Positions 6,926-33,107 of a stretch of 33,107 nt of DNA are shown here, in pieces (the first letter of the stretch is position 1; each line of letters opens with the position of its first letter). The position numbers were made by a program, and so were the translations under genes. Source of the stretch: Nemertoderma westbladi (taxonomy: Eukaryota > Animalia > Xenacoelomorpha); contig JAUCBJ010004114.1 of NCBI GenBank assembly GCA_032718475.1, forward strand, positions 1 through 33,107. Reading direction: 5' to 3'. The notes below the pieces were generated by a model, which had not been told where the DNA came from, made no database searches, and was given only the letters and a program-made list of their open reading frames with translations.

Positions 6926-7361
6926 GGTTTGATTACATAATAGCAGCATCTGTTGTAAGTTCTTCGCGAACTGGCCAGTGGGTTTGTTTTACATAATAGC
7001 AGCATCTGTTGTAAGTTATTAGCGAACTGGCCAGTGGGTATGATTATATAATTAATAGCAGCATCTGTTGTAAGTTCTTCGCGAACTGGCCAGTGGGTTT
7101 GATTACATAATAGCAGCATCTGTTGTAAGTTCTTGGCGAACTGGCCAGTGGTTTTGTTTACATAATAGCAGCATCTGTTGTAAGTTCTTCGCGAACTGGC
7201 CACTGGGTTTGATTACATAATAGCAGCATCTGTTGTAAGTTCTTGGCGAACTGGCCAGTGGGTTTGATTACATAATTGCAGCATCTGTTGTAAGTTCTTG
7301 GCGAACTGGCCAGTGGTTTTGTTTACAAAATAGCAGCATCTATTGTAAGTTCTTCGCGAAC
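6887..7361. repeat. 55-bp minisatellite, left part (~8-9 units)
   Basis: Unit TAGCAGCATCTGTTGTAAGTTCTT(G/C)GCGAACTGGCCAGTGGGTTTG(A/T)TTACATAA with period 55 (e.g. 7111 to 7166). Confidence 0.95.
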
Positions 7362-7916: not shown

Positions 7917-7925
7917 GTAATTGAA
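7917..7925 (+). promoter_or_regulatory. Non-tRNA primer-binding site candidate, complementary to LTR-internal 7709-7717
   Basis: GTAATTGAA directly abuts the LTR end, has no TGG, and is the exact reverse complement of TTCAATTAC at 7709-7717. Confidence 0.65.
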
Positions 7926-7997
7926 AGCCAAACTGCTGCCCTAGTTAAACGGTAACTAAAGACCAACAGCCCAAACTGACTGCCAGATACCAGCAAG

Positions 7998-10560: not shown

Positions 10561-11669
10561 CAGACAGCAGGACATACTGTAGGCCTTACTGCACATTAGG
10601 GCGGTGCGTTTATTACTTTTTTTCGATTTCATTGTTCTACCGGTGCACAAAAGTTGCCAAATGGTAAAAAAATAAGGCAAAAAAAATTTCATTAAATTTC
10701 GTCTATATCTTCACGGATCCCAAGAGGGTTGAAATTTTGAGCCATCACGATTCACCATAATGAAATTTATAACAATATAACACATTGATGAAAGATCAAT
10801 GACTCAAAAAAGAACTTCCTGCATGCATCAAATGTCATCAAATGGGTCCAAACTTAGTTAGATACCAAAATTTTAATTTTTGGATTAAGGGAAGTAGTGC
10901 CACAGGCACATGACCAGAACCTACTCTTTGGCGCAAGTGATGATTATTCTCAATTTGGGTGATGGACAACTTTTAGTTCTCCTACGGCATTAATATTATG
11001 CTCATTAGAACCGCAATGACCGATTTAGTGGGGGTAGACACCATCAAAACAAGCATAGAGCGAATAGTTCTTAAGATATTACAGAAAATGTTAAGTACCC
11101 CTGCAAACCACCAACGTTAATCTAACGTTGGGTTTATGTTAGACATTCGTTAAAAAATGATAGTTAGAATTTAACCATAAACCTACGTTAAAATACGTTA
11201 GAATTCTGTCAATTTTTAACGTTAATTTTTTACAGTAATTATACGTCAAAAATTTACAAATATCGGACATTTCCAAATTTTTTAACGTTGATTTAACGTT
11301 AATTTTTAACGTTCATTATTAACGTTAATTTAGCATTAAAATACATCAGATTTTAACGATGATTAGTGAATCACTTAACTGATTCATCAATGGATAACAT
11401 GTCTAGCTGACCATCCGCTGACTTTGTTCATTTCTTATTTTGTTAAATTTTTATGATACTTGTGTAACTTTTTAAATATTATTTTTAAATATTTGCCTTA
11501 CTAGTCAGCATCTGTGTACCAGTACCAAGCGTACAGTATAAAAGTACAGTAAGTAAGCGTACGGTAGAAAAAGGGTGGAAAGAAGGATCTAGAAGATGCT
11601 AGTGGGGCTGCAGCCGATAGCGAAGATGAATGAATATTATATATCGATAAAAACTTGGCCCTAATTACT

Positions 11670-12222
11670 TTTCGGTTAACTTTATGAAAGTGGATGTACG
11701 TTTCAGTTAACTTTATGAAAGTGGATGTACGTTTCGGTTAACTTTATGAAAGTGGATGTACGTTTCGGTTAACTTTATGAAACTGGATGTACGTTTCGGT
11801 TAACTTTATGATAGTGGATGTACATTTCGGTTAACTTTATGAAACTGGATGTACGTTTCGGTTAACTTTATGAAACTGGATGTACGTTTCGGTTAACTTT
11901 ATTAAACTGGATGTACGTTTCGGTTAACTTTATGAAAGTGGATGTACATTTCGGTTAACTTTATGAAAGTGGATGTACGTTTCGGTTAACTTTATGAAAC
12001 TGGATGTACGTTTCGGTTAACTTTATGAAACTGGATGTACGTTTCGGTTAACTTTATGAAACTGGATGTACGTTTCGGTTAACTTTATGAAAGTGGATGT
12101 ACGTTTCGGTTAACTTTATGAAACTGGATGTACGTTTCGGTTAACTTTATGAAACTGGATGTACGTTTCGGTTAACTTTATGAAACTGGATGTACGTTTC
12201 GGTTAACTTTATGAAACGGATG
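11670..12222. repeat. 31-bp tandem array, ~17-18 copies
   Basis: Unit TTTCGGTTAACTTTATGAAA(C/G)TGGATGTACG, head-to-tail with no spacers. Confidence 0.95.
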
Positions 12223-12712
12223 AGTCCGGTAGCAACCTACGGGTCTCTGAACTATAGATCTAAGCCTCCCATTGATAAATGAAAATTCCACAAATTTCTA
12301 ATTCCGAATTCCAAAAATTCCACATTTCCAAAGCCTACTTTATAGTGTTATAGAAATTAAATTCAGAATTTCATACAAGAAAAAATCATACATAATTATT
12401 GATTTTTTCATTGATCAATTACACGAGATTATGAATTTAAGCTTATGGTTTTAACACTTGAATTTGTTCAAAATTACATTTCACTGTATGTAACTGGCAA
12501 TTTGAAAATCTATCGTAATGTGATAATAACGTGTATTATTAATATTATATCTAATACATAATTATTATATGTATTATTGATTAATCATACGTAATGTGTT
12601 AATTGTGAGATAATACAATATAATTTTGTCAATATTAAGTGGCAAAGTTGTCTTCGGCCGTTAGGCCAGGGAAAACATTACTCACAAAGTCTGACGACTT
12701 GTTTCCAGATAA

Positions 12713-12942
12713 GGGGGCGTTCATAAAGTATGTCACGCACTAGGGGGAGGGGGGGGGGGGTAGAGCTTTCGTGACATTTTGTGACAGGTGGGAGGGGGGT
12801 GTCGACCTTTGTGACGGTCACGGCGATGCATGCAATTAAATAAATTTACGAAAAGGGGTTTTTTGTGACAGAAGGGGGGGGGGGGGGGGGGGGGGGGTCA
12901 AAAAAATGGAAAATTTGCGTGACATACTTTATGAACGCCACC
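12713..12942. mobile_element. PIF/Harbinger (Tourist-like) MITE, 230 bp
   Basis: 27-bp TIR GGGGGCGTTCATAAAGTATGTCACGCA with one mismatch; TAA on both flanks (12710-12712, 12943-12945). Confidence 0.88.
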
Positions 12943-12959
12943 TAATTCCACCATATATT

Positions 12960-13140
12960 TATTCACCAGAGGATACTCCAGTACCCATTAAAGGACGCCC
13001 TTGAGAAATGCGCCCTAGCTCGTCCCTTTAAAGCGTTCGTCCTGAAACGAAAACTCTCCCGACCCCTTTGCGGGGATCGAACCCATGACCTCTGGAGAGA
13101 TGTTAATTAAAGGCAAAGGATTAACACTACACAAACTACA
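12960..13140 (-). mobile_element. Possible tRNA-derived SINE head
   Basis: Minus strand has the B-box-like GGTTCGATCCC (~13073-13084) with a weak A-box-like stretch upstream. No complete cloverleaf; boundaries are uncertain. Confidence 0.4.
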
Positions 13141-13817
13141 AGGACGGGAAGAACATAAAAAATGTTAGATTTTTGCTTGATCAAATGTGGCGTCGAATGC
13201 TGGACATTGACATTGACATATAGATTATCTATCATTACTAATATCAATATTAATTATAACAACACATTTTGATGCTAACAAATACTATAGTATTTGTAAT
13301 TTCTCTGAATGCTATTTTTAATGCAACTACGGCGACAATAAACCAAGAGGGATTCGAGCTGAGTTTCAGCAGAGTAAATGCAATACAAAAGACCGCAACT
13401 ACTTAAATTTATGCAAAAAAAACCGTAAGTCAACAAGACTTGCGGTTTTTTATCATTAGAATTTAATGAGGATTTCACATCTGGAAATGGCTTGGCGAGA
13501 TCTGTTGTATGCATTTTCAATAATTACTAGAAGTAGCTCCGATGAGAGAAAGCTTTTAATTTAAATGATGTTATTAATTCCATTAGTCATCTGAGGTCAA
13601 CCCACCCTACCCTAACTGTTTAATATGATACTGCCTTCTTAGGTTGTTTCGAGTTATCACTGTCTACCGGTCTGACCGTCAAGATGTAAATTTAGACAGA
13701 GCCAGATAAGATAATAGCAATTGTTTGGAATATGTGATTATTTGACGTTAATTAACGTTAAGGTAATTAAGCGTTAATTATTATAATTATGTTTTTATCA
13801 CTGTCAGTTGTTTGTAA

Positions 13818-14038
13818 TTTTTTAACGTTAAATACAATATATTTTGACGATCCAAACTGATTGTCAGTAATATGTCATTTTTTAACGTTAAACATACAAT
13901 ATATTTTGACGATCCAAACTGATTGTCAGTAATATGTCATTTTTGAACGTTAGACATACAATATATTTTGACGATCCAAACTGATTGTCAGTAATATGTC
14001 ATTTTTTAACGTTAAACATACAATATATTTTGACGTTA
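13818..14038. repeat. 62-bp subterminal tandem repeat, ~3.5 copies
   Basis: TTGTCAGTAATATGTCA recurs at 13861, 13923 and 13985. Confidence 0.9.
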
Positions 14039-15014
14039 ATTTGCGTTAATTTTTAACGTTAAAAGGGCGGCCAAACTAACGTTATTTATATGTATTATTA
14101 ACGTTAATAATTAACGTTGGCATTGTCAGAAAATAACGTATATTAATGCATTATTAACGTTAAATTGTTTGCAGGGACGGCACAAGTCAACATTACTGCC
14201 TTGATGATTCATAGACAAATACACAAAAATGTTACTTCTAATTATCTTAAGGCATCAAAAATAGACACATCACTGCAACAAATTGATTTAGTGTATACAG
14301 AGACCTTCAAAATTAAAGAGTAGTGATTAATTCACTATAGTTTTTGTACAAAATGTGTGGAATGGGTCAACTCAATATCAAGTAGTAATTGGTGGATATA
14401 GTCTTGACATTTTGTAAAATAACTCAAAAACTAATGACTCTACTCTTATTTTGAAGGTGTCATCACCCATTATTTCGATCATTTCTGTGATGTGTCTATT
14501 CTTGATTCCTTGAGATAATTCAATATATCATTTATAGTGTATTTGTCCATATCACATCAAGGCGGTAATGTAGACTTGTGCCGTACTTCACATTTTCTGC
14601 GATATCTCAAGAACTATTCGCTCTACGTTTGTTTTGAAGGTGTCTACCCCCACTAAATCGGACATTGCGGTTCTAATGAGCATAATATGAATGCAGTAGG
14701 AGAAATCAAAGTTGGCCATCGCGAAAATTGAGAATAATCATCACTTGCACCAAATGGTAGGTTCTGGCCATGTGCCTGTGGCACTAGTTCCCTTGACCCA
14801 AAAATTAAAATTTTGGTATCTAACTAAGTTTGAACCCATTTGATGACATTTGATGCATGCAGGAAGTTCCTTTTTGAGTCAGTGATCTTTCATCAATGTG
14901 TTATATTGTTATATATAACGGCATATAACCGGCACTCAGAGCGTCACATGCAGGCGAGGAGACGTAGAGGATATAAAATGTAGATAGAGTAGAGGGAGTA
15001 GATGTAGAGGAAGA

Positions 15015-15655
15015 GGGTATGTATTACCGTTAGCTAGAGGAGTTAGTATGGGTAGTAAGAGGGTACGTAGTACCGTTAGCTAGAGGAGTTAGTAGGGGTA
15101 GTAAGAGGGTACGTAGTGCCGTTAGCTAGAGGAGTTAGTAGAGGTAGTAAGAGGGTACGTAGTGCCGTTAGTTAGAAAGTTAGTAGAGTCAGCAGAGGTA
15201 GAGAGTCAGTAGAGTTGGCAGAAGTAGAAAGTTAGAGAGTTGGAGAGTTAGTAGAGAGTAAATGGAGTTAGCAGAGTTAGTAGAGCTAGTGGAGTAGACT
15301 TAGTAGAGAGTTAGTAGCGGAGTTAGAGTTAGTAGTAGAAGTTAGAGAGTCAGTAGAGTTAGAGAGCTAGGGAGTTAGCAGAGCTAGTGGAGTAGAATTA
15401 GTAGAGCTAATCAGTAGAGTTAGAGAGCTAGGAAGTTAGCAGAGCTTAGTAGAGCTAATCAGTAGAGTTAGAGAGCTAGGGAGTTAGTAGAGCTAGTGGA
15501 GTAGAGTTAGTAGAGCTAATCAGTAGAGTTAGAGAGCTAGGGAGTTAGTAGACCTAGTGGAGTAGAGTTAGTAGAGCCATCTAGCAGAGTTAGTAGAGCT
15601 AGTGGGGTTAGTAGAGTTAGCAGTAAGACAGTAGAGACCATAGAAGTAGTAGCTA
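15015..15655 (+). repeat. Purine/TAG-rich tandem and low-complexity repeats
   Basis: ~46-bp units GAGGGTACGTAGTACCGTTAGCTAGAGGAGTTAGTA..., followed by degenerate TAGAGTTAG/TAGAGCTAG repeats. Confidence 0.85.
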
Positions 15656-15699
15656 GAAAGGGTAGATAGGGTAATAGCACAGAATAGGGGCAAATATCA

Positions 15700-15910
15700 G
15701 GATCACCTCCGAACTACAGAAGGGCCTTCTAGGTGGCTTTCGGAGGTCTGGTAGACCATCCGGGGCTGGAGGGCGAGTCGGTGTAATACAACAGCCGGCA
15801 TCCAGTAGACAGGGAGGTGGATACACAAGAGAGCTGGGAGAAGTTGGAAGCGGATAGACTGGAGGGGAAGCGACTGGAAGAAGTCGCCAGGCGAGAAAGG
15901 CAGAGAGAGA
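15700..15910 (+). pseudogene. Fragment of the accessory (exonuclease/zinc-knuckle) ORF
   Basis: Aligns by eye to ~24267-24480 (GSP.NYRRAF..AF.GLVDHPGL.GESV.YNSRH) with in-frame stops. Confidence 0.85.
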
Positions 15911-16728
15911 GTAGTGGGTAGTAGGAATGAAGCGCATTATGTAGACGAGCATATAATACATAATATAATAATTATAATTATAATATTATAAAAAATTATA
16001 TAATAACTCGTATATATATTATACAGTATGTACCGTAGTCAAGCACAACCTTTTCCAATTAGCTACTGGGACTGGGGACTAATTGACTAGGGTGACAGGA
16101 CGGGACTTAGATGGCTTCCACCAACATGATGTACACATGTGTGGGACCCGAAAAGTGTGTGGTCATTGAACAACAGGGCGGAGTTCAGGATTTACTGTGA
16201 AAGCTCGTATCCTCCGGGATAAGAATCGTGCGGATGGGCACTACCGGGATAAGAGTAGGAGGGGCACTTGGTGGGACCACAGGCATGGAGAGCGAGGAGT
16301 ACGAGAGGAGTATGAGAGGAATGTGAGAAGAGTATGGGAGGAGAACGTAAGAGAGATAGCGAGAGGTGGTGTGGAGATAGTATGGAGAGAGTGTGGGCGC
16401 AATTCAAGTGTGGGGGGGAGAAGTGAGAGGAAGAGTGTGGGACGAGGAGGTCCGAGAGTATGCGAGAGTTAGGGTGAGAGTCGAGGAGAGTTAGGGCGAA
16501 AGTGTTGGGGAAACAAAAGTTGTGTGAGAGAAGCGCACGATCGGCCCGACACGGGACGCCAGACAAACGGGGTAGCATTATCATACCCATAGGGAGCGGC
16601 CTGGAAAGCCGGCTCCGAGAGAAAATAGTTCCACCCCACACCCGATAATAGATCGAGTTTCTCGCGGAATTAAAGCGCACTTTGAGGTTGATGCTATCTT
16701 CTCACCGGGAAGATAGCATGGGGGGGAG

Positions 16729-17296
16729 TGTGAGCAAATCAATTCCGCCTCACCAAACCCCATAAAGTGAGCCGTTAAGCAATATTGGGAACACGAGGTT
16801 GATTACCAATATCAACCTCGTGTCACCCAACAAAGTGGGAAGGAGAAAACACACACACACACGCACAATAAGGGTCAGGGGTTACGCCCCTGAAAGAGAG
16901 AGAATAGCAGGGGCAAAGGGAAGCACTTCAGGGAGGGTGAAAGGGCGACAACAGGGTTATTAGCCAATGGGGGGAAGGCACCGGCTGAGTAGTGATTATG
17001 TGGCCAACCGTGCAATATATATATTACCGGTAACCGTGTCATTCATTCAGTTCAGCTAGTCAGTGCAGTTAGGGTGGAGCGGGAACTTCTATCACTGTCC
17101 GCTACCGCCATCACATGTAATACTTTACCGGTATATCATTCAGCTATCTTCTGTGTCTATGTTCTATTTATTATTTATACATATGCCTATCAACAACATC
17201 GGGACTCTCATTGCAACAAACTCTTTTCATACACGGCGGGGACGCGTAAGATAGAAAACCCAAAAGGATAAATCGGGGTCGACCGATCCCGTCACA
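16729..17296 (+). repeat. 3' LTR of the nested element (568 bp, different subfamily)
   Basis: TGTGAG...GTCACA, preceded by a PPT. U3 is very similar to the 7362 LTR while R is diverged. Confidence 0.92.
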
Positions 17297-20109
17297 CGTA
17301 CCATAAACATACCGGTCGACGAACCGAACACGGACAGGACATATTACTTGCCACTCCACGTGGCTTTAGATCCGAAGAAAGGTAAACTGCGGATGGTAGT
17401 GGATGCATTAAGAGACACAGTAAAGGGAAAGGAAGATAAGTACAGCACTAGAGCCGTCAATATGATTCGACGCGGCTTCTACGTAGACGATGGGATGGAG
17501 TCTGGAAACACGATTGAGGAGCTACTGGACACAGGGCGCAAGGTTCGCGACATCCTTAAAGGATCCGGCTTCAACCTGACCAAATTTCAATCCAGTTCGA
17601 AGGAATTTATCGAGGCGATAAGGGATGAGAGACCAGGATTGACCATGGATAATCCCACAACAGCCAAGCGGCAGGACATGGCGAACAAGAGAATAGAGTC
17701 TCAACAGAAGGCGCTGGGAATCGTGTGGAACAGAGAGATGGATGAACTGAAGTACCAGTTGAGTCAGGAGGGCGCAGATACCCACACAAAAAGGGGTTAT
17801 GTGTCATACACAGCAAGGATATACGATCCCCTAGGCCTAGCATCCCCACTACTAGTCACGGGGAAACAGATACTCAAGAGAGTATACAAGCTAAAGGACG
17901 AGTGGGACACAGAGGTCCCGGAAGAGATTAGAAAGCAGTGGTATAAGTGGACATGGGAACATACAGCATGCCACGAGTGTATTTCCCGGATGGGGACATG
18001 ACGAATCTGGACCTACACATGTTCTCCGATGCGTCGTTGGAGGCATACAGAGTGGCACTCTATTTAGTACAATGAGAGGGGGCTCACAAGCCCAGACTCG
18101 CCTTCAGCAAAGCGAAGTCAACGCCACCAGATTCAGCATCAGTTCCCAAACTAGAATTGACAGCTGCGGGACTAGGAGTTACGGCTACAGCCTACCTAAT
18201 GGACGCTATTCCCAACATAGTGGAGACGCACTACTGGACAGATTCCATGGTAGTGCTTGGTTGGCTACATAATGAAAGGACGAGATACCCTATATTCGTC
18301 GCGAATAGGGTGGACGAAATAAGGGCGACCACAGAACTGGAAAGGTGGCACTACTGCCCAACGGACGAGAACCCGGCGGACTTGTTATCGAGGGGCATGG
18401 TACGCCACACTTTCTTGAAGAAGGAAGTATTGTGGCAACACGGGCCACAGTTTCTGAGTGATAGGGAGGCCTGGCCGCCGATGAGAAAGGTGGACCCGGG
18501 CTTAGGAGAAGTAGTGTCAGAAGGAGAAGAGGGAGACTCAGAGGGAGAGGAGATATACTCCCAGATGGTGAGGGAGATAAGGGACGTGCAACCAAAACCA
18601 GGAGAACTGTGCGATAACCCGACGGATAAACTCCTTAACTACAGTTCTAGTTGGTACAAGACCAAGAAGTTAGTGGCATACTGGAGAGCCTTCCGGAATT
18701 TCCTCAGGGGAGTTGGTAGAGACGTGAAGATTAGAACGACAATAGACCTGGAAGGAGCGGCCAAAGCAGTAATCCGCTACGAGCAGAGGAAGAACTACAG
18801 CGACGAGGTGGAGAGCGTCGGTAAGCAACAGCATCTCCGGCGGGACAGCGAGCGGATCACGCTGTCACCACAACTTAATGACGACGGGATTCTAGTAATG
18901 AACTCTAGGGTGGGATACAACAACAGTATCGTCGTACCACCGAAGCCCATCATCATCCCCACAGGATCGCCAATAGTCCACTAGATTATCTGGGACTCCC
19001 ACAAGTCGATATTGCACGGGGGCACCAACCGAACCCTCACGGAGATAAGGAGGACCTTTTGGGTCAAACAGTTGAGGAAGAAGGTAAAGGCGGTAGCGGG
19101 GCAGTGCCAGACCTGCCGACGAGCGAAGAAGGAGCGAGCCATACAGGAGATGGCACCACTACCAGCAAGTAGGGTAAGACAGCACGACCAGCCATTTACA
19201 CATTGCGGTATGGACATGTTCGGGCCGATAAAGATCAAGGTGATGCGGCACACGGAGAAACGCTACGGTATTATCTTCGTATGTAATAACACGCTGGCGG
19301 TAGGGATAGCACTCGCCCAAGATGCAACCGCATCGGCATTCATTAATGCCTTAGAGAGGTTTAGAGACCGCAAAGGTGGGACGATCGCAGTAATATACTC
19401 AGACAACGGGACCAACTTTGTGGGGGCGGAGAACGAAATGGCAGAGGCCTTGGATATCCTGGAAGGAGAGGAAGTCAGGGCAGCCATGAGGCGACGACAA
19501 GTAAAATGGGAGAGGAGGACGCCGTATGCACCGCATACCCTAGGATGCGTCGAGAGACTAGTGGGTAGTTTGAAGCGTCGGATGACGAAGTTGATGAACA
19601 CCCATATGGTCACGGAGGATGTGCTAAGGACAGTACTTGCGAAGTGTGAGGGTATCATTAATAGCAGACCGCTATATCCAGAGAATGATGACCCTGAATC
19701 GCTAGACGTACTGACACCCAGCCATTTCCTAATGGAAAGGCCAGCGACCATCGATATGCGGGGTGTAGACCCAGATGACATACACTCACGCCAGAGTTGG
19801 AAAGTTGCTAAGGCGATAAGCGCAGAGTATTGGAGGAGATGGGTTGAGGAATACCTACCCACGCTTCACAGAAGAAGTAAGTGGAGGAAGACGAACAGAG
19901 AGCTGAAAGAGGGTGATCTCGTGATCGTCACGGATGATACCATCATCAACAACCAGTGGCGGTTGGCGAGGGTTGTAGGCACTTACTCCGATGAGGACGG
20001 AAGAGTCCGATCGGTAGAAGTGCGGATAGGTGGCAAGATTGGTGCCAAAGACAGGAAAACCTACAAAAGGGCTGTAGGGAAGTGCTGTCATCTGGAAGGA
20101 GCACCTTGA
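17297..20109 (+). pseudogene. pol: BEL/Pao pol: partial RT, RNase H, integrase
   Basis: RT: YYLPLHV..PKKGKLRMVVDA, FYVDD, GFNLTKF, YDPLGL. RNase H: LHMFSDAS, PKLEL.AA, WTDS, FVANRV, ENPAD. Integrase: H..HGG..CQTC, MDMFGP, SDNGTNF, ERLV, WRRWVEEYLPTL. Frameshifts at ~17960-18160 and an in-frame TAG at 18982. Confidence 0.95.
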
Positions 20110-20271
20110 TATAAAGCAAGAGTAGAGTTTAGTCGTCCAAGTTTTGGACTGAGGGGGGCGGGATTGAGGGCGAGACGCCCTTCCCACACAAAAAAAATAA
20201 AATAAAAAAAAATAATAATAATAATAATAACTAGGTACGCAGTAAGTAGGCGGATAGAAGTTAGTTAATTC

Positions 20272-20600
20272 AGTAAGAGAGAGTAAGAGTTAGAGGGTAC
20301 GTAGTACCGTTAGTTAGTTAGAGAGAGTAAGAGTTAGAGGGTATGTAGTACCATTAGTTAGAGAGAGTAAGAGTTAGAAGGTATGTAGTACTGTTAGTTA
20401 GTTAGAAAGAGTAAGAGTTAGAGGGTACGTAGTACCGTTAGTTAGAGAGAGTAAGAGTTAGAGGGTACGTAGTACTGTTAGTTAGTTAGAGAGAGTGAGA
20501 GTTAGAGGGTACGTAGTACCGTTAGTTAGTTAGAGAGTGTAAGAGTTAGAGGGTACGTAATACCGTTAGTTAGAGAGAGTTAGAAGTTAGTAAGAAAGTA
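20272..20600 (+). repeat. 40-44-bp purine-rich tandem repeat after pol (~7 copies)
   Basis: Unit GAGAGAGTAAGAGTTAGAGGGTACGTAGTACCGTTA(GTTA)GTTA. Confidence 0.9.
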
Positions 20601-21101
20601 TGTAGTACTAGTTAGTAAGAGATAGAGGTAGAAGGGTATATATAGTATAGATATCAGTCAGTAGTTAGTAGCGAGAGGGGGGCATATGAGTACAGCTGGA
20701 TAAATCGTGTAGGCCGCGCGACGCATACTGTTGTACTGCACAAGCCCACAGAGTAGGCCAGAATGTGGATTAGGAAATAGAATGATCCATAGGCAATAGT
20801 AAGTAGTAGGACAGTAGAATTCAAATTAGATTAAAATAAAATAAAATAGGGCTGATAAATTAACAAATTACAGTAACAATAGAAAGGAAAATTCTGGAAT
20901 ATAATAAAAGTAACTGACAAAATTCGCAATTTAGGTACAATTTGGTAGCTACAGAAATAATGCAGTGTAAATAGGCTAATTAACTTAGTAATCCAGAGGG
21001 AGATAGGCCATCGAACTGAAATAAACCATCTAAACCTCACTCATCCTATAACGCCTTGGTAAGGCACCACCCAAAGGGTGAGCGATCGGGAAGAGTTCGA
21101 G

Positions 21102-22043
21102 ATGGCAAGCAAACTTGTGCGAAAGAGAAAGGCAGAGCTAGGAGGAAAGGAGATACTGGAGGATTTCACCAAGAGACATCCGGAAGAGAGGACGAGGGGA
21201 TACTATGAGCGGTTAGAAAAGGGTCATGCAGCACGAGCGTTACAGGACCACTTTAGGGAGATGCATGAACAGCGGCTGGTCGGGACCTACGGGACGCCGT
21301 CGCTGGACAACGTGATCTTCGAACATTTCCACTACGTGGTGAAAGTAGACGAGGCGAAGTTCGGGATTCCGAAGTACGCGAGAGAGTCACCGAGGAAAGA
21401 TTGGAAGAGGTTCATAGAGTCCGTCAACAGGGGGGGATACATTTTCCTAGACAACGAAGGGACCGTGGAAGACGAGGAGGGTTCAAGGAGAGGATCGGCG
21501 GGATCGGCCAGAAGCTTACTCCTACATTTGGCCGCGCCAAATGGGGACATTTTCCTGTTTGACCTAGGAACGTATGGGAAGAAGGAGTTCCGGTGGGGCT
21601 TCTTTAACATCAATCAGGAGGCTCACATGGAAATTATCAAACAGAGGCTTCCGTTTACCTACCAGGAAGTGGTGACGGCGGCATCGTATGCCGGGGTGAT
21701 AAATACGCAGAGGTATTTGGATAGGTGGACGCCACAGAACAAAGGAGAGTTTAGGGATTTCTTGGCGGAGCATGTGCCGCAGGCAATGAAGATGATCTTA
21801 TGGGACGCCACCAGGGGGAGACAACAGGGCCACTCGGAGGGGCCACCCGTGAAGCGATATCGGGAGCTGATAACACCGGCACCCAAGGAGCCAACGACCG
21901 GGATCAGTAAGGAGGTGGCGGCGAGAGTCCGAAGACAGAAAGCAGATCCCAGAGGAGTGGCAGTAACCAGGAAACGACCCAGGGAGGAGGACGGCAAAGG
22001 GAAAGACTTGAGGTGGTTCCCAAAGGCTGGTGGAACGAACTAA
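21102..22043 (+). pseudogene. Accessory ORF copy 1, with an in-frame internal deletion of 1608 bp
   Basis: Highly similar to 23310-25862 but joins GTYGKK directly to EFRWGFF at an AGGA microhomology (21583-21586). Keeps ExoI-like FLDNEG but loses the rest of the exonuclease and the zinc knuckles. Confidence 0.85.
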
Positions 22044-23309
22044 GACTTCTGTGTAACATGCCTGGAAGGCACCACGCGAGACGTGCGAACTCTTAAATAC
22101 AAATTCAAATAATGTAAATAATCGAATAAGTGCAATTTGTATGTACGTATGTAGCAATCGGTAATCTAGTAATAAAATATATTTTCGAAGTAAGTACTAT
22201 AGTTATATAACCTTTCTCAACTAGCTACTGGGACTGGGGCCAACTGACTATGGCGCTATGGACGAGACAATAGACAATTTCACACTTCTTGAGTGCGACG
22301 GCACAGGGGGAGGGGTGAGATTCGTCAGGAGTGAGTGAGTAAGAGGAGGGGTCGAGAAAAGTGTGATAGTGCGGAGTGCGAAGAGAGCGTGAGCGCAATT
22401 CAAGTGTGGGGGGGGGGGGGGAGAAGTAAGAGGAAGATTGAAAGACGAGGAGGTTCGGGCGTACGTAAGAGTTGGGGTGAGAGTAGAGTAGAGTTGGAGT
22501 GGCGAAAGTGTTGGGGAAACAAAAGTCGTGTGGGAGGAGCGCGCGATCGGCCCGACACGGGACGCCAGGCAAACGGGTAGCGTTATCATACCCATAGGGA
22601 GCGGCCTGGAAAGCCGGCTCCGAAAGAAAATAGTTCCACCCCACAAACGATACTAGGTCGAGATCCAGCGGAATTGTAGTGCACTAGAGGTAGATGCTAT
22701 CTTCTCACCGGGAGGATAGTAAGAGTAAGAGTAAGAGAGAGTAAGAGTTTAGAGGGTACGTAGTACCGTTAGTTAGAGAGAGTTAGAAGTTAGTAAGAAA
22801 GTACGTAGTACTAGTTAGTAAGAGATAGAGGTAGAAGGGTATATATAGTATAGATATTAGTCAGTAGTGAGTAGCGAGAGGGGGGCATATGAGTACAGCT
22901 GGATAAATCGTGTGGCCACGCTACGCATACTGTTGTACTGCACAGGTCCCACAGAATAGGCCAGAATGTGGATTATAAAATAAAATAATCCATAGGCAAT
23001 AGTAAGTAGTAGGACAGTAGAATTTAAATTAAATTAAAATAAAAATAAGAATAGGGCTAAAAATTAGCAAATTATGGTAACAGTAGAAAAGGAAATTCTG
23101 GAATATAATTAAAGTAACGGACAAAATTGTGATTTAGGGTACTTTTAGTAGCTTCATAATTAAGTAGTGTAAAAAAAAATAGGCAATAACTTAGAAATTC
23201 AGAGAGAGATAGGCCATCGAACTGAAATAAACCATCTAAACCTATCACTCATCATATAGCGCCTTGGTAAGGCACCACCCAAAGGGTGAGCGATCGGGCA
23301 GAGTTCGAG

Positions 23310-25862
23310 ATGGCAAGCAAACTTGTGCGAAAGAGAAATGAGGAGCTAGGAGGAAAGGAGATACTGGTGGATTTCACCAAGAGACATCCGGAAGAAAGGA
23401 CAAGGGGATACTACGACCGGTTAGAAAAGGGTCACGCAGCGCGAGCGCTACAGGACCACTTCAGGGAGGTGCACGAACAGCGGCTGGTCGGGACCTATGG
23501 GACGCCGTCGCTGGACAACGCGATCTTCGAGCATTTCCACTACGTGGTGAAAGGAGACGAGGCGAAGTTCGGGATTCCGAAGTACCCGAGGGAGTCGCCA
23601 AGGAAGGATTGGAAAAGGTTCAGAGAGTCCGTCAACAGGGGAGGATACATGATCCTAGACGACGAAGGGACCGTAGAAGACGAGGAGTGTTCAAGGAGAG
23701 GATCGGCGGGATCGGCCAGAACCATACTCCTACATTTGGCCGCGCCAAATGGGGATATTTTCCTATTTGACCTGGGAACGTATGGGAAGAAGGATGGGCC
23801 GAAGTTGGACCGGCTGCCGAGGGCGGTGCAACTCCTAGTAAGAGAGAATTCGACAACGAAAGTGGGATCGGAGATTCGCGACGACGCGGAGAGAATCATC
23901 GGTCCGGACACCCCCAACCTCCTGGATATGCAGACGGTCTTCATGGCTATGACAGCACCAGACGGGTTGGGACTAGTCGAGAACACAGGCCATAGCGGAA
24001 TGGTGGCGATGGGCCAGCTATTGGGGCTCGTATGTCACAAACCAATGGACTGGGGGAAGTTTAGGGAAGAGTACGGAGCAGAATTAGTGAACTCGCTGAA
24101 GTGGGGAGCGAGGCCGGGAAAACAAGAGGTGTATCAATTCCGAAGAGGAGCGATAAAGGCATATCAGAAGCGATATATCCTGCAGGAGGACTGGATAATT
24201 ATAGGTTTGCATAACCTATTCATGACCATGGTTATCGAGAGGGAACCAGCGGCATTCCTATTATCGGGATCACCCCTAAACTACAGAAGAGCCTTTAAGA
24301 CGGCTTTCGCGGGTCTGGTAGACCACCCGGGGCTGAGGGGCGAGTCGGTGTACTACAATAGCCGACATCTAGTAGATGGGAAGATAGATACGCCGTATCA
24401 AAGATGGGAGCAGCTAGAGACGGATAGACGAGAGGCGAAGCGACTGGAAGAAGTCGTTAGACGGGAGAGGATAGAAGCAGAGGAAAGGGAGGAGGAAGCC
24501 AGGGCACAGGGCTACGGCTTCGAGGAACAGGCGGGCTTAGATGAACTTCATTGGACTTCATCAGGGAGTTCGGCGGAGTCTCTAGGACGAGAACTGGGAT
24601 GGACGGTGGGATCACCGAAACAGTCGACGTCGGGATTGCAAGCGACGCCCATACCAGCGGGCGCCGAGGGCGACAAGCCACTAAGGAAGCTAGGGGAGCT
24701 AGAGGGCGAGAGCCAAGGCAGGAAGGAACATAGTGGATCCACCGGGATACCGGGGTTGGAGCCACTGCCAGAGGAGGATGAAGACGACGATGAGTTCGGA
24801 GAGATGCCGCCCATTGGGAGGATCGGCCACTCAGACACGGACTGGGTTGGCGGGAGGGTGGTGACGGCCAGTGGGGCGAGGGCCTTCTGGGATAGACCCG
24901 GCAAGCGGGCCTGGGTGCACGAGGAGCCGGCGATGGATTTCGCGGGGAGCACTATCAGGTTGGGTGAACAACCGGGGACGGCACCACGAGTAGTATTCGG
25001 GGAGACAATGCCCGAAAGGGGCACGGAGATCGACGTAGATCGGGACACTAACGTCCGGAAGTTCGCTTACCAGCGACTCCACAGACCGCGGAGATTGCTT
25101 GGGACGAAAGACGACGTGGGGCGGGAGACATTGGTACTCGGTTGCGACTACTGTGGGAGACAGACCCACCAGGAAAGGAGCTGTCTGTACCGGTTCCAGA
25201 AGGGAACTAGTTGTCTCTATTGCCGCGAGTCGAGCCACAGGATGGGGGCGTGTCCACGGTTGCATAACCGATGTTCGAAATGTAACTTCCGGGGACATTG
25301 CGGACGCCAGTACGACTGGATGGACGACAAAGAGAAGTTTAGGATCTTCGAGGAGTGGGCCGACATTGGGGCGATGACTCGGTAACGTATGAAGGCCCAG
25401 GAGTTCCGGTGGGGCTTCTTTAACATCAATCAGGAGGCTCACATGGAGATTATCAAACGGAGGCTTCCGTTTACCTACCAGGAAGTGGCGACGGCGGCAT
25501 CATATGCCGGAGTGATAAATACGCAGAGGTATTTGGATAGGTGGACGCCACAGAGCAGAGGAGAATTTAGGGATTTCTTGGCGGAGCATGTGCCGCGGGC
25601 AATGAAGATGATCTTATGGGACGCCACCAGGGGGAGACAACAGGGCCACTCGGAGGGGCCACCCGTCAAGCGATACCGGGAGCTAATAACACCGGCACCC
25701 AAGGAGTCAACGACCGGGATCAGTAAGGAGGTGGCGGTGAGAGTCCGAAGCCAGAAAGCAGACAAGACTAGAGGAGCGGCAGTGACCAGGAAACGACCCA
25801 GGGAGGAGGACAACAAAAGGAAAGACTTAAGGTGGTTCCCAAAGGCTGATGGAACAAACTAA
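23310..25862 (+). CDS. Accessory ORF copy 2: DEDDy 3'-5' exonuclease-like domain, coiled coil/acidic linker, CCHC zinc-knuckle cluster; one in-frame TAA at 25383
   Basis: ILDDEGT (ExoI), LLHLA...IFLFDL, LPRAVQLLV....TKVGSEIRDD (ExoII), LLDMQ, G..AM..LLG...HK, QKRYILQED (ExoIII-like) follow the WRN/EXD/Mut-7/RNase D motif order. CDYCGRQTHQERSC, CLYCRESSHRMGAC and CSKCNFRGH form the knuckle cluster. The first ATG (gagATGg) at 23310 is taken as the start. Confidence 0.75.
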
Positions 25863-26542
25863 GACTGCGGTGTAACATGCCTGGAAGGCACCACGCGAGA
25901 CGTGCGAACTCTTAAATACAAATTCAAATAATGTAAATAATCGAATAAGTGCAATTTGTATGTACGTACGTAGCAATCAGTAGTCTAGTAACGAAATATA
26001 TATATTCGAAATAAGTACTATAGTCATATAACCTTTCTCAATTAGCTACTGGGACTGGGGACCAATGGACTATAATACTACCAGGGACGAGACATTGGAC
26101 GACATCACGCTTCTTGAGTGCGACGGCACAAAAGGGAGGGGTGAAACTCGTCGGGAGTGAGTGGTCACGATAGGGGTTGAGTTGTAGTGCGGAGAGAGCG
26201 CGGAGTATAGAGAGAGTGCGAGCGCAATTCAAGTGTGGGGGGGGGGGAGAAGTAAGAGGCAGATTGAGGAACGACGAGGTCCGAGAGTGTGTAAGAGTTG
26301 GGGTGAGAGTAGAGTAGAGTTGGAGTGGTGAAAGTGTTGGGGAAACAAATGTCGTGTGGGAGGAGCGCACGATCGGCCCAACGCGGAACGCCAGACAAAC
26401 GGGGTAGCATTATCATACCCATAGGGAGCGGCCTGGAAAGCCGGCTCCGAGAAAAATAGTTCCACCCCACACCCGATACTAGATCGGGATCCAGAGGAAT
26501 TGTAGCGCACTAGAGGTGGATGCTATCTTCTCACCGGGAAGT

Positions 26543-27036
26543 CACGAGGTTGATTACCAATATCAACCTCGTGTCACCCCAATAAAGTGGGAAGGAGAAA
26601 CATATGCACAATAGGGGTCAGGGGTTACACCCCTGAAAGAGAGAGAATAGCAAGGGCGAAGGGAAGCACTTCAGGAGAGGTAAAAGGGCGACAACAGGGT
26701 TATTAGCCAATGGGGGGAAGGCACCGGCTGAGTAACGTAACTTGGCCAACCGTGCAATATATATTATCAGTACAGTAATCATTTCTTTCACTTGTAGTAA
26801 GTCAGCTTAGCTAGGGTAGGACCAGAACTTCAATTACCGTCTTCGTATACCATCCGTGTATCCAATATCATATCTTATATTTTGTGTTATCATACTTTGT
26901 GCCTTATATTATATCCTATACTATTATACCCGGAACTATATACAGTGATCAATAAACTCTCTTTACCTTTCACACACGGCGGGGACGCGTAGATTGAAAA
27001 CCGGATAAACCGGGATCCTCCATAGATCCCATCACA
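26543..27036 (+). repeat. 3' LTR of the outer element, missing its first 61 bp and the PPT
   Basis: Matches 7423-7916, ends ATCACA and is followed by the TSD CGAAC. Confidence 0.93.
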
Positions 27037-27814
27037 CGAACTGGCCAGTGGGTTTGATTACATAATAGCAGCATCTATTGAAAGTTCTTGGCGAACTGGC
27101 CAGTGGTTTTGTTTACATAATAGCAGCATCTGATGTAAGCTCTTCGCGAACTGGCCAGTGGGTTTGTTTACATAATAGCAGCATCTGTTATAAGTTCTTG
27201 GCGAACTGGCCAGTGGGTTTGATTACATAATTACTAGCAGCATCTGTTGTAACTTCTTCGCGAACTGGCCAGTGGGTTTGATTACATAATAGCAGCATCT
27301 GTTGTAAGTTCTTGGCGAACTGGCCAGTGGTTTTGTTTACATAATAGCAGCATCTGTTGTAAGTTGTTGGCGAACTGGCCAGTTGGTTTGTTTACATAAT
27401 AGCAGCATCTGTTGTAAGTTCTTGGCGAACTGGCCAGTGGCTTTGATTACATAATAGCAGCATCAGTTGTAAGTACTTGGCGAACTGGCCAGTGGGTTTG
27501 TTTACATAATAGCAGCATCTGTTGTAAGTTCTTGGCGAACTGGCCAGTGGGTTTGTTTACATAATAGCAGCATCTGTTGTAAGTTCTTGGCGAACTGGCC
27601 AGTGGACTTGTTTACATAATAGCAGCATCTGTTGTAAGTTTTTGGCGAACTGGCCAGTGGGCTTGTTTACACAATAGCAGCATCTGTTGTATGTTATTGG
27701 CATACTGGCCAGTGGGTTTGATTACATAATAGCAGCATATGTTGTAAGTTCTTGGCGAACTGGTCAGTGGGCTAGTTTACATAATAGCAGCATCTGTTGT
27801 AAGTTCTTCGCGAA
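27037..27814. repeat. 55-bp minisatellite, right part (~14 units)
   Basis: Same unit as 6887-7361, resuming in phase after the TSD. Confidence 0.95.
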
Positions 27815-28600
27815 TGTAAGCGGATTCAATTCCACCAGAAAATGGGATAGTGGCATTTTCAGCAATATGTTGGAGATATGAGATTAGCAATATTAATCTC
27901 GTATCACAACCAACATTTGGGAGGGGGGGGGGGGCACAAGCCCCGAAGCCACACACAAAGGAAGGTTAGAGGTCAAACCACCTCGGAGGGGACACAGCTA
28001 GTAGAGGCTAGCAGCAGAGGGGAAACACTCCCAGAGAGTGCAAGGGTGACAAGTAGGATATTAGCCAATAAGGGGGAGGAAAGCACGTGATAGGGCACAG
28101 AAGAGCATCCATTAGGTAACAGGCCAAAGTAGCGTAGGAGGTAAAGCAATATTGGTATATCAATCATATATTACCTCTCGTTACCGGTTTATGATTCAAT
28201 TAGCTAGTTACTTAGTTTTAGTGCAGACCGGTAACATTGTTTCACCGTCATCGTATATGGGCTGTTATCATACATTACCATTGCCGGGCCGGTTTGTGAT
28301 TCAACATATACAATCTTTATTGTGCTACTATTATTATACATATATTACAACGCAAGGAATAACATTAACAACGCTTTTCTCCAACGGCCTCGGCCAAGCA
28401 ATCAATACCATCTTAGAGCCTGCGGTGACGCGTATAGCAACCAACCCGGTCGGGATCTCTGATCCTGTCACAGTGAAACAATTGACCAACTGCCATCAAA
28501 CTGTGACTGCAAGAATAAGAGGAGAGGATGAGCGATAGAGAACCCCGATTATCAGAGGGAGAGAGAACGCCGCCGCGGACCCCGGACGATACCAACCAAA
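27815..28600 (+). mobile_element. 5' LTR (27815-28472) plus leader and gag start of a more distant relative; the rest is deleted
   Basis: TGTAAGCGGATTCAATTCC...GATCCTGTCACA. Shares ATTAGCCAAT.GGGGG and GACGCGTA with the other LTRs. Followed by MSDREPRLSEGERTPPRTPD. Confidence 0.85.
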
Positions 28601-29374
28601 CGAACTACTCAAAAAATTCAATGCATTCATTCTTCAGTCCTTGAGTCTCACTCATCGGTTAGTCCAGTTTGCCCATAGCGCTAACGCAGTAGCGATACCA
28701 AAAGTCGAGCTCGCCAACAACACTGCATCAGACAGAGGCGGTGGCCTTGATGGCGAGTTGTTTGAGTACCGGTACAATTACAAAACGTTGCTGGGTATTG
28801 CAGTATTGGGCAGTTCCAGTTGGGGTACCGATTGCAATAGCGGATACTGGAACATGGAATAAAGGTCAGCTGGTACAACCTGACAATATGTCAGTCTGTC
28901 TTAAGTCCGTATAATTTCAAAACTTCCATGGCTGCATGGTTGCCTTTGCCGAGCCTATTGGTGACCAAAAACCAACGACTTGAAGAAGGTACCGGTCATA
29001 GCGTACTCTATTAAAGGCCTTGCAAGCGTGCAGCCTTCAAAATTTATGGAGGCTGGATTATAAACGGTAGCGTACTGCTGTATTGTGTGTGTGCAGGCAT
29101 GGGGAGAGTTCTATAAATTTTCATTTGTTGCAATTTGGTTAATGGATGTAATTGAAGCCTCATCGATAAGCAAAATAAAAAATTTTATGGTAGCTAGTGT
29201 TTTAAGTAGCTTTAGCTAGTAATTTTAACACTGGTTCCGATATCCTACTTCCTTCTATAAATATTTTATAGTAGCTAGTTCTTATTTCTATTTATATAGA
29301 AAATGTTCCAAAACATGTTAGCTATTCATTTTTAAAAATATTCTAGAATATTCATTATTATTTATAATGTTTAA

Positions 29375-30506
29375 GGGGGGGGGGGGGGGGGGTAGCGCAT
29401 TTTCTGACCAAAAAGACGAATTTTTGAAACATATCCTATCTGATGCAGAATTTCATGCTGAATCCAAATATGGAAACCGTTTTCCGATATCTTGCTTAGT
29501 TTTCGAGATATCTGGGATAGAAGATACTGGCTCCGATATATCGCGATATCGGTAAAGGCGATGAAGTTTGGGGTTTGCATTCAATTTCTGCATATTTCTG
29601 TGCTCAGTGGTGCCAATTGGATGTCTCCATGAGAAAGAGCACAAAATTTTAATTGAGAAGGTATTTTTTTATGATTATTGGACCTACTGATCAGTTTATA
29701 AGACAACTTCAAGTCTCCGGAATGAAGCGAATAAGCGACTCTGCGGTCTTTGCGCGATTACACGGAATAGACTTATTGGTCATCGGAGATCTTCAAATTG
29801 TATAATCTCCAGTTCTAGTGGTCGTACGAAGTTCGTTTTAGGCTCATTCGAAAGCTCTTTTCTTAGAGAACAAAGTTACCATTTGATTTAAGACAAAATG
29901 GTTGTAAAGCAACATAACATGAATTTGGGTAAAATATGCCTTGCAAATTTTGTTCAAGTTATGATTGCTCAGGCAGCTTTCAAGAGTTTGCCAAACCAAA
30001 TGGTAACTTTGGTCTCTGAGAAAAGAGCCTTCGAATGAGCCCAAAACGAACTTCGTACGACCACTAGAACTGGAGATTATACATTTTGAAGATCTCCGAT
30101 GACCAATAAGTCTATTCCGTGTAATCCCACAAAGACTGCAGAGTCGCTTATTCGAGTCCCGTCTTCATTCCGGAGACTTGAAGTTGTCATATAAACTGAT
30201 CAGTAGGTCCAATAATCATAAAAAAATATCTTCTCAATTAAAATTTTGTGCTCTTTCTCGTGGAGACATCCAATTAGCACCACTGAGCACAGAAATATTC
30301 AGAAATTGATTGCAAACCCCAAACTTCATCTCCTTTACCGATATCGCGAACCATCGGAGCCAGTATCTTCTATCCCAGATATCTCGAAAACTAAGTAAGA
30401 TATGGGAAAACGGTTTCCATATTTGGATTCAGCATGAAATTCTCCATCAGATAGGATATGTTTCAAAAATTCGACTTTTTGGTCTGAAAATGCGCTACCC
30501 CCCCCC
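29375..30506. mobile_element. Foldback MITE with TTAA TSD (Kolobok-like)
   Basis: TTAA at 29371-29374 and 30507-30510; GG...CC termini; ~510-bp highly similar inverted arms around a ~110-bp spacer. Superfamily inferred from TTAA plus purine-purine start. Confidence 0.88.
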
Positions 30507-30640
30507 TTAATTAATAGGAAGAGGAACCAAAGTTAATATAAATTGAGTAAATCCAGTTTTACTACAAATAAACGAATACGAGTCAATGTTCTCTATAACG
30601 AATACAAGTAAATGTAAATTTTTTTTTTTAATTATGTTCT

Positions 30641-30900
30641 AGAACAAATATTTTTTGTTCTAGAACATTTTTTATAAAAAAATCTGGATTCTATTTAAAA
30701 CGCATGGAATCGTTCTAAAACGTGCTTAAATCAATAAAAAAAATTGAGAAAAAAAATATTATGAAAAAATTTAATTAAAAAAAAAATTTGAAAATTCGTT
30801 TTTTATTGATTTTAAACACGATTTAGGAGGATTCCATGCGTTTTAAATCGAATCCAGATTTTTTTCTAAAAAATGATATAGAACAAAAAATATTTGTTCT
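30641..30900. repeat. ~260-bp imperfect palindrome (small foldback/MITE core)
   Basis: AGAACAAATATTTTTTGTTCTA...TCTGGATT...AAAACGCATGGAATC is mirrored by GATTCCATGCGTTTT...AATCCAGA...TAGAACAAAAAATATTTGTTCT. Confidence 0.8.
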
Positions 30901-31129
30901 TTTTTTTTTTTTTTAATCATTACACCCCAGGCGGGGTAAGAGTCAGTTTAATTATTTCAATATATATAAGTTATAATTATTATAGCACAACATTCGAAAC
31001 CGTAAAATAGGTAGGTACAGTACTAATATTTGTTATTCCCCATTACAAACTGTTTAAAATAACAATACAATGGTGGGCTATGTAAAAAAATATCCGAATT
31101 TGCCCTAGGGAAAATAACCAGTTATTAAT

Positions 31130-32492
31130 TTCCATTTTACAAAATTTCCATTATACATTTCCAAATTTACTTTCCCACCATCACTCTCCCAATTGGAAGA
31201 AAGAAGTAAAAAGCAAAAAAGAAACATACCTTGCTTTAATTTCAGCAAGGCATCCCAGGACCAAACTCAAAAATATAAGGAGTACATTGCGTCTCACCTG
31301 GAAGCCCATCATTACATCTCCGATGCTAAACAAGACTCTGCTCAACACATTTCCGAAAGACTTGCACACCTAACCAAAACCATTATGGAAGCTTCAAAGA
31401 AATTTATTCCATATAGTTAGTTACCCACGACAAAAGAAAAATAGGACACTTGAGAAACAACACAGATCCAGACCACAACAAATTAATTATTCCCTTAATA
31501 AAGGCAAAACAAGAGTGGTTAAAAAGTGGAGGAGACTTGAACACTCAAGAATACCATAAATACCGCATCGCTAAGCTAGAATATGAAGACACCCTGAAGA
31601 GAAAAGCACAACAATCAGAAATATCCTACCAACTTCATGTTAAAGAAATAGCCAACTCAATAAAAGATCCAAAAAAATTCTGGTGAATAGTAAAACCACA
31701 TAAACAAAAACAACAGCTATCTGACACCAATGTGGACAAACTACATAAAGACTACATTACAAATTTCAAATTAGATGTACAAGATGAACATTGCAATGAT
31801 ACCGTCACTCTCCCTGCTGATACACCTTACCCAACAGTTGTTACAGAATCACATATCAATCACAATAATAACACTTCTAAATCGTGGTAAGGCAACTGAC
31901 ATACCCAACATGAAAGCAGAAAATCTTTACCATGGCTTATCTCACAATTTATGTACAATTATGTTTAACAATACAATATGTTTAACTCCATCAACAAATC
32001 AGCAAACTGTCCCTTGATTCTATCCCAAAGCCTCTTAATCGCTGTTCCTAAACCAATGAATGGTAACAACATTTTTGAAAACATGCGCTTTAGAGGCATC
32101 ACCACCATACTCAATGTCATTGCCAAATTATGGGAAACTACAATACTTAAGGAATTAGAATGCCTACAAACGAACGACCTACAACTTGGTTACAAAACTA
32201 AGGTAAACTCGGAGACAGCATACATAACAACAGCTAACCTTATTAAAATCTTTAATCAACAGCATTCCCAGGTGCACACAGTTTGTTTAGACCTCACTTC
32301 AGCCTTTGATAAAAGTATCATATAACCAGCTCTTTTCAAAGCTATATTCATCAGATGTAAACCCAAGAATTGTTTCTGCAATAAAATCATACTACCTGAA
32401 CTCTGTTGCATACATGCGTAATGGGACATATATATATCAGGAAGAAATATCAATAGAACAGGGCGTCCGCCAGGGAGGAGTGTTAAGTTCAC
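31130..32492 (+). pseudogene. Decayed non-LTR retrotransposon (LINE) ORF2 / reverse transcriptase fragment
   Basis: PKKFW*, GKA, AVPK, FRGIT..NVIAKLWE, QLGYK, CLDLTSAFDK and GVRQGGVLS across several frames; cut at 32492 by an LTR. Confidence 0.88.
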
Positions 32493-33053
32493 TGTGACGG
32501 GATCCGAGAGTCCCGGTTTATCCTGGGTGTCTTATTTACGCGTCCCCGCCATGTGTGTGTGAAAAGAGTTCTGAAGTTATTGATCGGTATATGAATATAG
32601 AATATAATAGTAAGTGAATGAAGTATAAGCACAGTTATTTGATATCAAAGGGTAATATACTGAATACTGCTGATTTGATGATGGCGGCAGTGGATGGTGT
32701 TAAGAGTCACCGTTCTGCCCTAACTGAACTGACTAACTAAAGTAAATGAATGAATGAGCACCAACCGGTAATATACTGCTCTGGTTTGGCCATATTACTC
32801 AGCGGATGCCTGCCCCCCCATTGGCTGATAACCTAATTCTCGCCCTCCCATCTCTCTGGGAGTGTTTTCCCCTTGCTGCTGTCATTCTCTCTCTCTCGGA
32901 GGTATGACCGCTGACCCCCATTGTGTGTTCCTCTGGGGTTTGTCGTCCCCGCTTATTGGGGTGATACGAGGTTGATTGGCAATCAACCTCGTGCTCCCAA
33001 TATTGCTTAAAGCTAACTTTGTGGGGTGGTTAGCGGAATTGAATTCGCTAACA
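32493..33053 (-). mobile_element. 3' LTR (561 bp) of another related BEL/Pao element inserted in the LINE RT; the element continues beyond the window
   Basis: Minus strand TGTTAGCG...GATCCCGTCACA, preceded by the PPT AAGGGGGGAG (33054-33063) and the same GCTATCTTCTCACCGGGAAGATAGC hairpin. Confidence 0.92.
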
Positions 33054-33107
33054 CTCCCCCCTTGCTATCTTCCCGGTGAGAAGATAGCATCCACCTTTAG
33101 TGCTATA

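Follow-up and report, generated by a model that had tools for sequence, protein, structure and literature searches.

Self-priming, in which a retrotransposon uses its own RNA in place of a tRNA, has been reported for the long terminal repeat (LTR) elements Tf1/sushi, Tj1, Tcn1, and TAR (PMC6317226, PMC4600332, PMC5341516, PMC6934838, and PMC5445492). In Tf1, the transcript's initial 11 bases anneal to the primer-binding site and RNase H cleaves after base 11 (PMC7175516), and the primer is copied into the cDNA at its 3' end (PMC11042837). Self-priming is predicted for the plant lineages Tcn1 (gypsy) and TAR/Houba/Osr-1 (copia); the criterion, as worded in the relevant part of PMC6317226, is at least 10 complementary bp located 0 to 5 bp after the 5' LTR. 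In the standard account, BEL/Pao elements are primed by tRNA and their replication is poorly understood, and the ICTV profile of the Belpaoviridae lists an 18-nt site complementary to tRNA-Arg or tRNA-Gly (PMC8742986). No paper on self-priming in BEL/Pao elements was found in the literature searched; an earlier mention is possible in Repbase reports, GyDB pages, subscription journals, or supplements, which lay outside the scope of the search. Term look-ups in the accessible text of PMC5443660, PMC3601003, PMC554778, PMC13524379, PMC3118150, and PMC3286476 returned no mention of it.

The window, which is the whole 33,107-nucleotide stretch of DNA that was analysed, is repeat-rich animal-type DNA in which pieces of LTR retrotransposons are nested in each other. 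Self-comparison and alignment recovered five copies of one LTR family, designated A5, B3, A3, C5, and D3 (Table 1). The LTRs are 555 to 658 bp long, within the BEL/Pao range of 0.2 to 1.2 kb, and run from TG to CA. Identity is 99% between A5 and A3, 70 to 78% among subfamilies A, B, and D, and 56 to 62% between C and the others (58% over 522 columns for A5 and C5). We designated A5 and C5 as 5' LTRs because each is followed by a homologous leader and the start of an open reading frame (ORF), with the peptide TPPRTPD common to both. B3, A3, and D3 were designated as 3' LTRs because of the purine tracts that precede B3 and D3 and the CGAAC duplication that A3 shares with A5. These three are followed by host flank, and therefore only two junctions in the window can be tested (n = 2); the 5' junctions of subfamilies B and D lie outside it. 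A different repeat seems to start near position 28603, where one read-derived contig begins.

The 55-bp satellite in which element A lies is also that of element C; the two have the same orientation and are 1 nt apart in the repeat unit (7357-7362 and 27810-27815), and a target preference is possible. Element A (7362-27036), with a 5-bp target duplication, has within it a B copy's 3' end, a 3' region present in duplicate (20528-22713 versus 22730-26539), and an insertion of unrelated sequence that bears an inverted pair (10765-11098 and 14583-14916). Positions 1401-6467 of the window are occupied by an (ACCG)n array of about 1266 copies that is 99% pure.

Table 1. Features of the LTR family in the window
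Feature	Coordinates	Strand	Remarks
R-region segment of subfamily C, candidate self-primer, ATTGTTTCAC	28236-28245	+	3' end (AC) faces first post-LTR base
Primer-binding-site position of subfamily C, GTGAAACAAT, offset 0, no TGG	28473-28482	+	exact complement of 28236-28245
R segment of subfamily A, 9 nt	7709-7717	+	complement of 7917-7925
Primer-binding-site position of subfamily A, offset 0, no TGG	7917-7925	+	complement of 7709-7717
5' LTR of subfamily C (C5), TG...CA, 658 bp	27815-28472	+	sits inside 55-bp satellite
5' LTR of subfamily A (A5)	7362-7916	+	target duplication CGAAC common to 3' LTR ending at 27036
3' LTR of subfamily B (B3)	16729-17296	+	preceded by purine tract; homologous R segment 17087-17095
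3' LTR of element A (A3)	26543-27036	+	99% identity to A5; without its purine tract or the initial ~60 bp
3' LTR of subfamily D (D3)	32493-33053	-	preceded by purine tract; homologous R segment 32697-32705
Remnant leader and gag-like ORF start (ATG 28528)	28483-28602	+	homologous to 7926-8060
TATA-like motif, inferred promoter	28166-28173	+	similar motif in other LTRs
3' flank of C segment	28246-28254	+	predicted pairing with U5 motif 28422-28430; alone 39/500, not significant
Conserved U5 motif	28422-28430	+	predicted partner of 28246-28254
Predicted 7-bp U5 terminal hairpin	28451-28467	+	similar hairpin predicted at all five window LTR ends
U5 sequence resembling A primer-binding site	7869-7878	+	predicted competing partner of 7709-7717
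Broken BEL/Pao pol pieces: RT C-terminal part, RNase H, integrase	17297-20109	+	Pfam domains
Extra ORF between pol and 3' LTR	23271-25385	+	candidate 3'-5' exonuclease-like domain and zinc knuckles (lead only)

The coding sequence identifies the group to which the family belongs. Pfam domains at 17255-20106 (PF05380, E = 1e-14; PF17921; PF00665; PF18701, E = 9e-25) occur in the order RT, RNase H, integrase, with the protease and the start of the RT lying outside the window. The same Pao-type domains are carried by 1058 relatives, and the best integrase relatives are BEL/Pao proteins of many animals that are 40% identical to that of the window. The pol pieces lie inside the element bounded by the CGAAC duplication and are followed by an extra ORF and then by a 3' region, which is found in front of LTRs A3, B, and D as well; no pol is left in subfamily C. 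This pol belongs to the LTR family. Judged from its sequence, only its protein places the family in BEL/Pao, and it deviates from the tRNA priming described for the group. The broken ORFs at 7980-10518, searched for gag capsid and nucleocapsid domains, had no Pfam match above family cut-offs.

The extra ORF, of which there are partial copies at 21063-22043 and 15695-15900, encodes two CX2CX4HX4C knuckles and a third, partial one. It had one repeat-like match among representatives and nothing above cut-off in Pfam, in the protein search, or among PDB sequences. Its language-model features give, as a lead only, a likeness to clusters of 3'-5' exonucleases (score 0.92 with 163 features in common; PF01612 is present on 50% of members), and its structure model was unusable (pLDDT 35). 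A role in primer trimming would be pure speculation. Next to LTR D, at 31969-32322, is a fragment with weak similarity to reverse transcriptase (PF00078, E = 0.003, which is below cut-off).

A preliminary description of this DNA had reported that the 10 nt directly after the 5' LTR of subfamily C have their exact complement inside the LTR, between the same conserved flanks as in subfamily A, and this is indeed what the window contains. The match begins at offset 0 after the LTR end at 28472, with 227 nt between the segment and the LTR end. A match of this length was reached in 14 of 20,000 dinucleotide shuffles of the LTR, and the 9-nt match of subfamily A was reached in 98 of 20,000. When offsets 0 to 3 and spliced matches were allowed, the frequencies were 4/1000 for C and 15/1000 for A. 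Under a looser, empirical null, a complement to a 10-mer lies within the preceding 600 nt at 102 of 8667 window positions and a complement to a 9-mer at 145 of 8667; because of these rates each single match is only moderately unlikely. Allowing a splice junction in the window's own LTRs did not lengthen the match, and contigs from four DNA runs over 27815-33107 included none that joins the segment to the post-LTR site. TGG was absent from the first 12 nt following each of the two 5' LTRs (A5 and C5), no tRNA gene was found in the window, and Rfam gave no credible match at 27800-28700.

The further claim, that the cores differ between subfamilies while the pairing remains perfect at the homologous position, holds in the two LTRs, which are 58% alike. 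Between A and C, four of nine segment positions differ, the matching four post-LTR positions differ too, and the segment:site cores of the window contain no G.U pairs. As a pattern in the sequence, the weight of the window observation lies in the homologous position together with the four two-sided differences among nine positions. The complementarity after the LTR is a real, non-chance feature. We put at roughly 70% the probability that in this BEL/Pao family an LTR segment primes reverse transcription in place of a tRNA, in a manner like that of Tf1. With n = 2 in the window alone, the weight of evidence for functional pairing comes from the relatives.

Eighty metagenome loci were gathered with an integrase alignment, of which 39 were not scanned because they retain little sequence upstream of pol. 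Of the 41 loci that were looked at, 32 entered a wider scan and 9 were dropped, one as a near copy of another (L024, of L023) and eight for very short leaders (L006, L018, L036, L050, L055, L057, L061, and L067). In seven loci a pair of LTR copies defines the LTR end, and two of these loci (L030 and L072) are self-complementary. L030 matches its 3' LTR copy over 11 nt at offset 0, preceded by a GGAAC flank as in the window (2/1000 shuffles), and L072 matches over 12 nt across a GT-AG junction (0/1000). Four of the seven have TGG-type sites, which we take to be of the tRNA type; their self-matches were 4, 5, 8, and 8 nt (845, 295, 17, and 18 of 1000 shuffles). The remaining locus, L062, had a 4-nt self-match. 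By this measure the 9-nt match of subfamily A taken alone (15/1000) is no stronger than the 8-nt matches in the TGG-type controls L059 and L063. A search for the LTR-end pattern gave 0 matches in viral and in metagenome contigs.

The wider scan set the LTR end according to its score against shuffled leaders, as in six of the eight matching loci, and the search for spliced matches was a later addition. Within an integrase branch of 18 rows, 9 rows reached 11 to 13 nt (0 to 3 of 60 shuffles each), or 8 without L066. The matches are contiguous in L020, L030, L035, and L047 and spliced in L008, L023, L070, and L072. In the four spliced loci the match appears only once a predicted intron is taken out, and this suggests that the template was RNA. 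The other 9 of the 18 rows had no match, several of them having short leaders. Outside the branch 1 of 14 rows scored, with a copy 290 nt upstream of its LTR, and 0 of 14 scored within the LTR. Fisher's exact test gave p = 0.044 when the out-of-branch match was counted and 0.004 when it was not, values to be read with the relatives as kin rather than as independent draws. The matched stretch ends in AC in seven of the eight loci, and a C follows in seven of the eight; both window cases are the same, and neither property was required by the scan. The preliminary view that the pairing is functional rather than due to chance is thus supported, both by the homologous place in LTRs that are 58% alike and by the recurrence of the pairing, with other letters, in distant BEL/Pao relatives.

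Two matches were set aside. The 13-nt match of L066 has its acceptor outside the LTR, and its 10-nt alternative, while plausible, was not counted. The 19-nt match of L059 was rejected because it is the copy located 290 nt upstream of its LTR.

Several features of individual loci are recorded here. The predicted GT-AG introns, with 11 to 13 nt matched, are 149, 168, 151, and 124 nt long (L072:2079-2790, L023:2024-2440, L070:1-355, and L008:1852-2310, respectively). L023, which is spliced, and L047, which is contiguous, are sisters in the trees (support 94 to 96), and the last 7 nt of the segment are common to both. In L030 (120-340; 6694-7103) the 3' LTR has the contiguous 11-nt segment, and in the 5' LTR the last 5 nt of the segment are immediately preceded by a sequence resembling an acceptor. 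Intron-bearing and intronless LTRs, 88% alike, may therefore be present in this one contig, which is possibly a chimeric assembly. Head-to-tail units with a period of 6138 bp and identical repeats in L024:1-15890 are either tandem copies or an assembly artefact.

All eight rows labelled as self-complementary fall in one integrase branch (SH-aLRT 96) that contains no TGG-type row. The window pol is on a long branch. It groups with the self-complementary rows in trees of the RT-RNase H and RNase H pieces (support 78 and 95), and its placement in the integrase tree is unresolved. In an AU test one clade was neither rejected (p = 0.437) nor shown, and the group tested was named after the tree had been seen. 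A distant locus from the viral collection (L081) distorted the integrase tree through its long branch and was left out of later trees.

The arrangement of motifs within the LTR suggests how such priming might proceed. About 70 nt upstream of the segment there are TATA-like motifs (at 7638-7645 in A), and AATAAA or AATAAC lies 122 nt downstream of it. With the textbook spacing from TATA to start, transcription would begin about 35 to 40 nt upstream of the segment. Because of the position of the TATA-like motif, the segment is probably inside R, 35 to 40 nt from the cap, rather than at the 5' end of the RNA. As read from the sequence, its 3' end has the geometry expected for copying U5 by extension. 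The RNA would fold back, aided by an R:U5 helix and the U5 hairpin, and would be cleaved immediately behind the segment, following AC, with the RNase H of the element as the probable enzyme, as in Tf1. A capped piece of about 45 to 50 nt would then prime minus-strand DNA, either on the same RNA or on a dimer partner, and in the course of plus-strand synthesis the end of the primer would be copied again, to form the next primer-binding site.

This last step bears on the term compensatory change, which had been applied to the differences between the subfamilies. The covariation of the two sites stands, but the mechanism that the term implies is probably wrong: under self-priming the site would be recopied from the primer in each cycle, and the covariation is likely to have been copied from primer to site and not built by paired mutations. 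Recopying would account for site and segment changing together without G.U pairs, and it also fits sites that match only a spliced junction.

A further set of pairings within the LTR complicates the simplest form of fold-back. The flank that had served as a landmark for the segment is itself predicted to pair with the conserved U5 motif, and a U.G pair of this helix in A is an A-U pair in C. The flank:U5 helix alone is not significant in A (52/500 shuffles) or in C, and it was found in 0 of 9 relatives, in which the observed energy was reached in 127 to 490 of 500 shuffles. A longer R:U5 duplex that includes the segment was better than with shuffled U5 in the four subfamilies (3, 5, 0, and 23 of 1000 reached it), in windows that were chosen after inspection. 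For the R stretch, its own U5 was the best partner in four of four subfamilies, by a narrow margin for B and D. Because the duplex includes the segment itself, the segment has two predicted partners. In folding of A, the probability of the segment:site helix was at most 0.02 in 10 of 10 settings, since the segment pairs with U5 instead, and forcing the helix cost 4.8 to 4.9 kcal/mol. In folding of C, the helix had a probability of 0.49 to 0.99 in four of five short settings and at most 0.38 in five long settings with 100 nt of leader added. The U5 hairpin is predicted at all LTR ends, and the fold that combines it with the primer duplex is not favoured for A. These results argue against a purely thermodynamic fold-back, and the predicted competing R:U5 helix may gate priming.

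The same results are the basis of an alternative in which the pairing is structural. The R segment would switch between U5 and the post-LTR site in the control of polyadenylation, packaging, or translation, and another primer would be used. U5 would be the only partner in the 3' LTR, with the post-LTR site available only at the 5' end. It fits this alternative that in each of the four subfamilies shuffled U5 is a poorer partner for the R stretch than its own U5, that the U5 partner in A resembles the post-LTR site and wins in folding, and that the helix encloses AATAAA at 7831-7836. However, a structural switch would leave the element without a primer site, and it does not explain the offset of 0 to 3, the absence of G.U pairs from the window cores, the conserved AC end, or the matches across splice junctions; the flank:U5 helix was found in none of the nine relatives. 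We therefore consider it unlikely as a replacement for self-priming, although the two could coexist.

Priming by a host RNA, such as a small RNA or a piece of tRNA (a half or an internal fragment), with the match in R being secondary, is less probable still. The relevant part of PMC6317226 describes half-tRNA priming in copia lineages, and the GT start common to the sites could reflect a common primer end. Against this, the sites differ at four of nine positions between subfamilies of one genome and at more among relatives, and each matches its own LTR. Cognate segment:site pairs have predicted energies of -7.3 and -10.2 kcal/mol, compared with -1.9 and -2.1 kcal/mol for swapped pairs. Chance, or a single functionless template switch by which a small inverted patch was copied, is very improbable even though a complement of this kind occurs within 600 nt for about 1 to 2% of window positions and a TGG-type control family has an 8-nt match, because the same position is complementary with different letters in LTRs 58% alike, the matches cluster in one integrase branch, and they have in common an end motif of AC followed by C.

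A broader form of the self-priming reading is that a whole BEL/Pao branch has swapped tRNA priming for an internal, capped self-primer that is cut after AC. Some members would build the primer end by splicing an intron in the LTR; in the intronless window family, a U5 decoy helix would switch the RNA between priming and another role. We offer this scenario tentatively, and would sooner doubt it than rely on it in its entirety. Until now, self-priming has been demonstrated in Tf1-type gypsy elements, and two plant lineages are predicted to use it. If the interpretation is correct, self-priming arose in a third LTR superfamily too and in a different form, with an internal primer that is splice-joined in some relatives. 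It would explain BEL/Pao families without a recognisable primer site and might mean that such elements are freed from regulation via host tRNAs or tRNA fragments. It would also provide a simple rule, that the site is the complement of an R segment ending in AC, which can be tested in any assembled animal genome.

The window family resembles the Belpaoviridae (genus Semotivirus) in its LTRs of 0.55 to 0.66 kb, purine tract, 5-bp target duplication, and RT-RNase H-integrase order. It differs from them in lacking the 18-nt tRNA site of the ICTV profile and in having an extra ORF with no family match before the 3' LTR. For the plant lineages Tcn1 and TAR/Houba/Osr-1, which belong to other superfamilies and hosts, at least 10 complementary bp are called for; subfamily C has 10 nt at offset 0, and subfamily A, with 9 nt, is 1 nt short. 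The closest likeness in the proposed priming is to Tf1 and Tf2 of Schizosaccharomyces pombe, Tj1 of S. japonicus, and the Tf1/sushi group of Ty3/gypsy elements, which, as set out in sections of PMC7175516, PMC4600332, and PMC5341516, also lack a tRNA site and have instead a 9- to 11-nt site adjoining the 5' LTR that is complementary to their own R. Those same sections describe a U5 stem-loop at the junction for the Tf1/sushi group, and a U5 hairpin is predicted at the LTR ends of the window family, with the fold that joins it to the primer duplex disfavoured in subfamily A. Unlike the Tf1/sushi elements, which have a Ty3/gypsy chromovirus pol, the window family has a BEL/Pao pol, and thus it would work like Tf1 without being a member of that group. 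The primer of Tf1 is the first 11 nt of the transcript, whereas the segment of the window family is predicted to lie about 35 to 40 nt inside R. Further differences from Tf1 are the predicted competing partner in U5 and, in some relatives, the need for a splice junction to complete the match.
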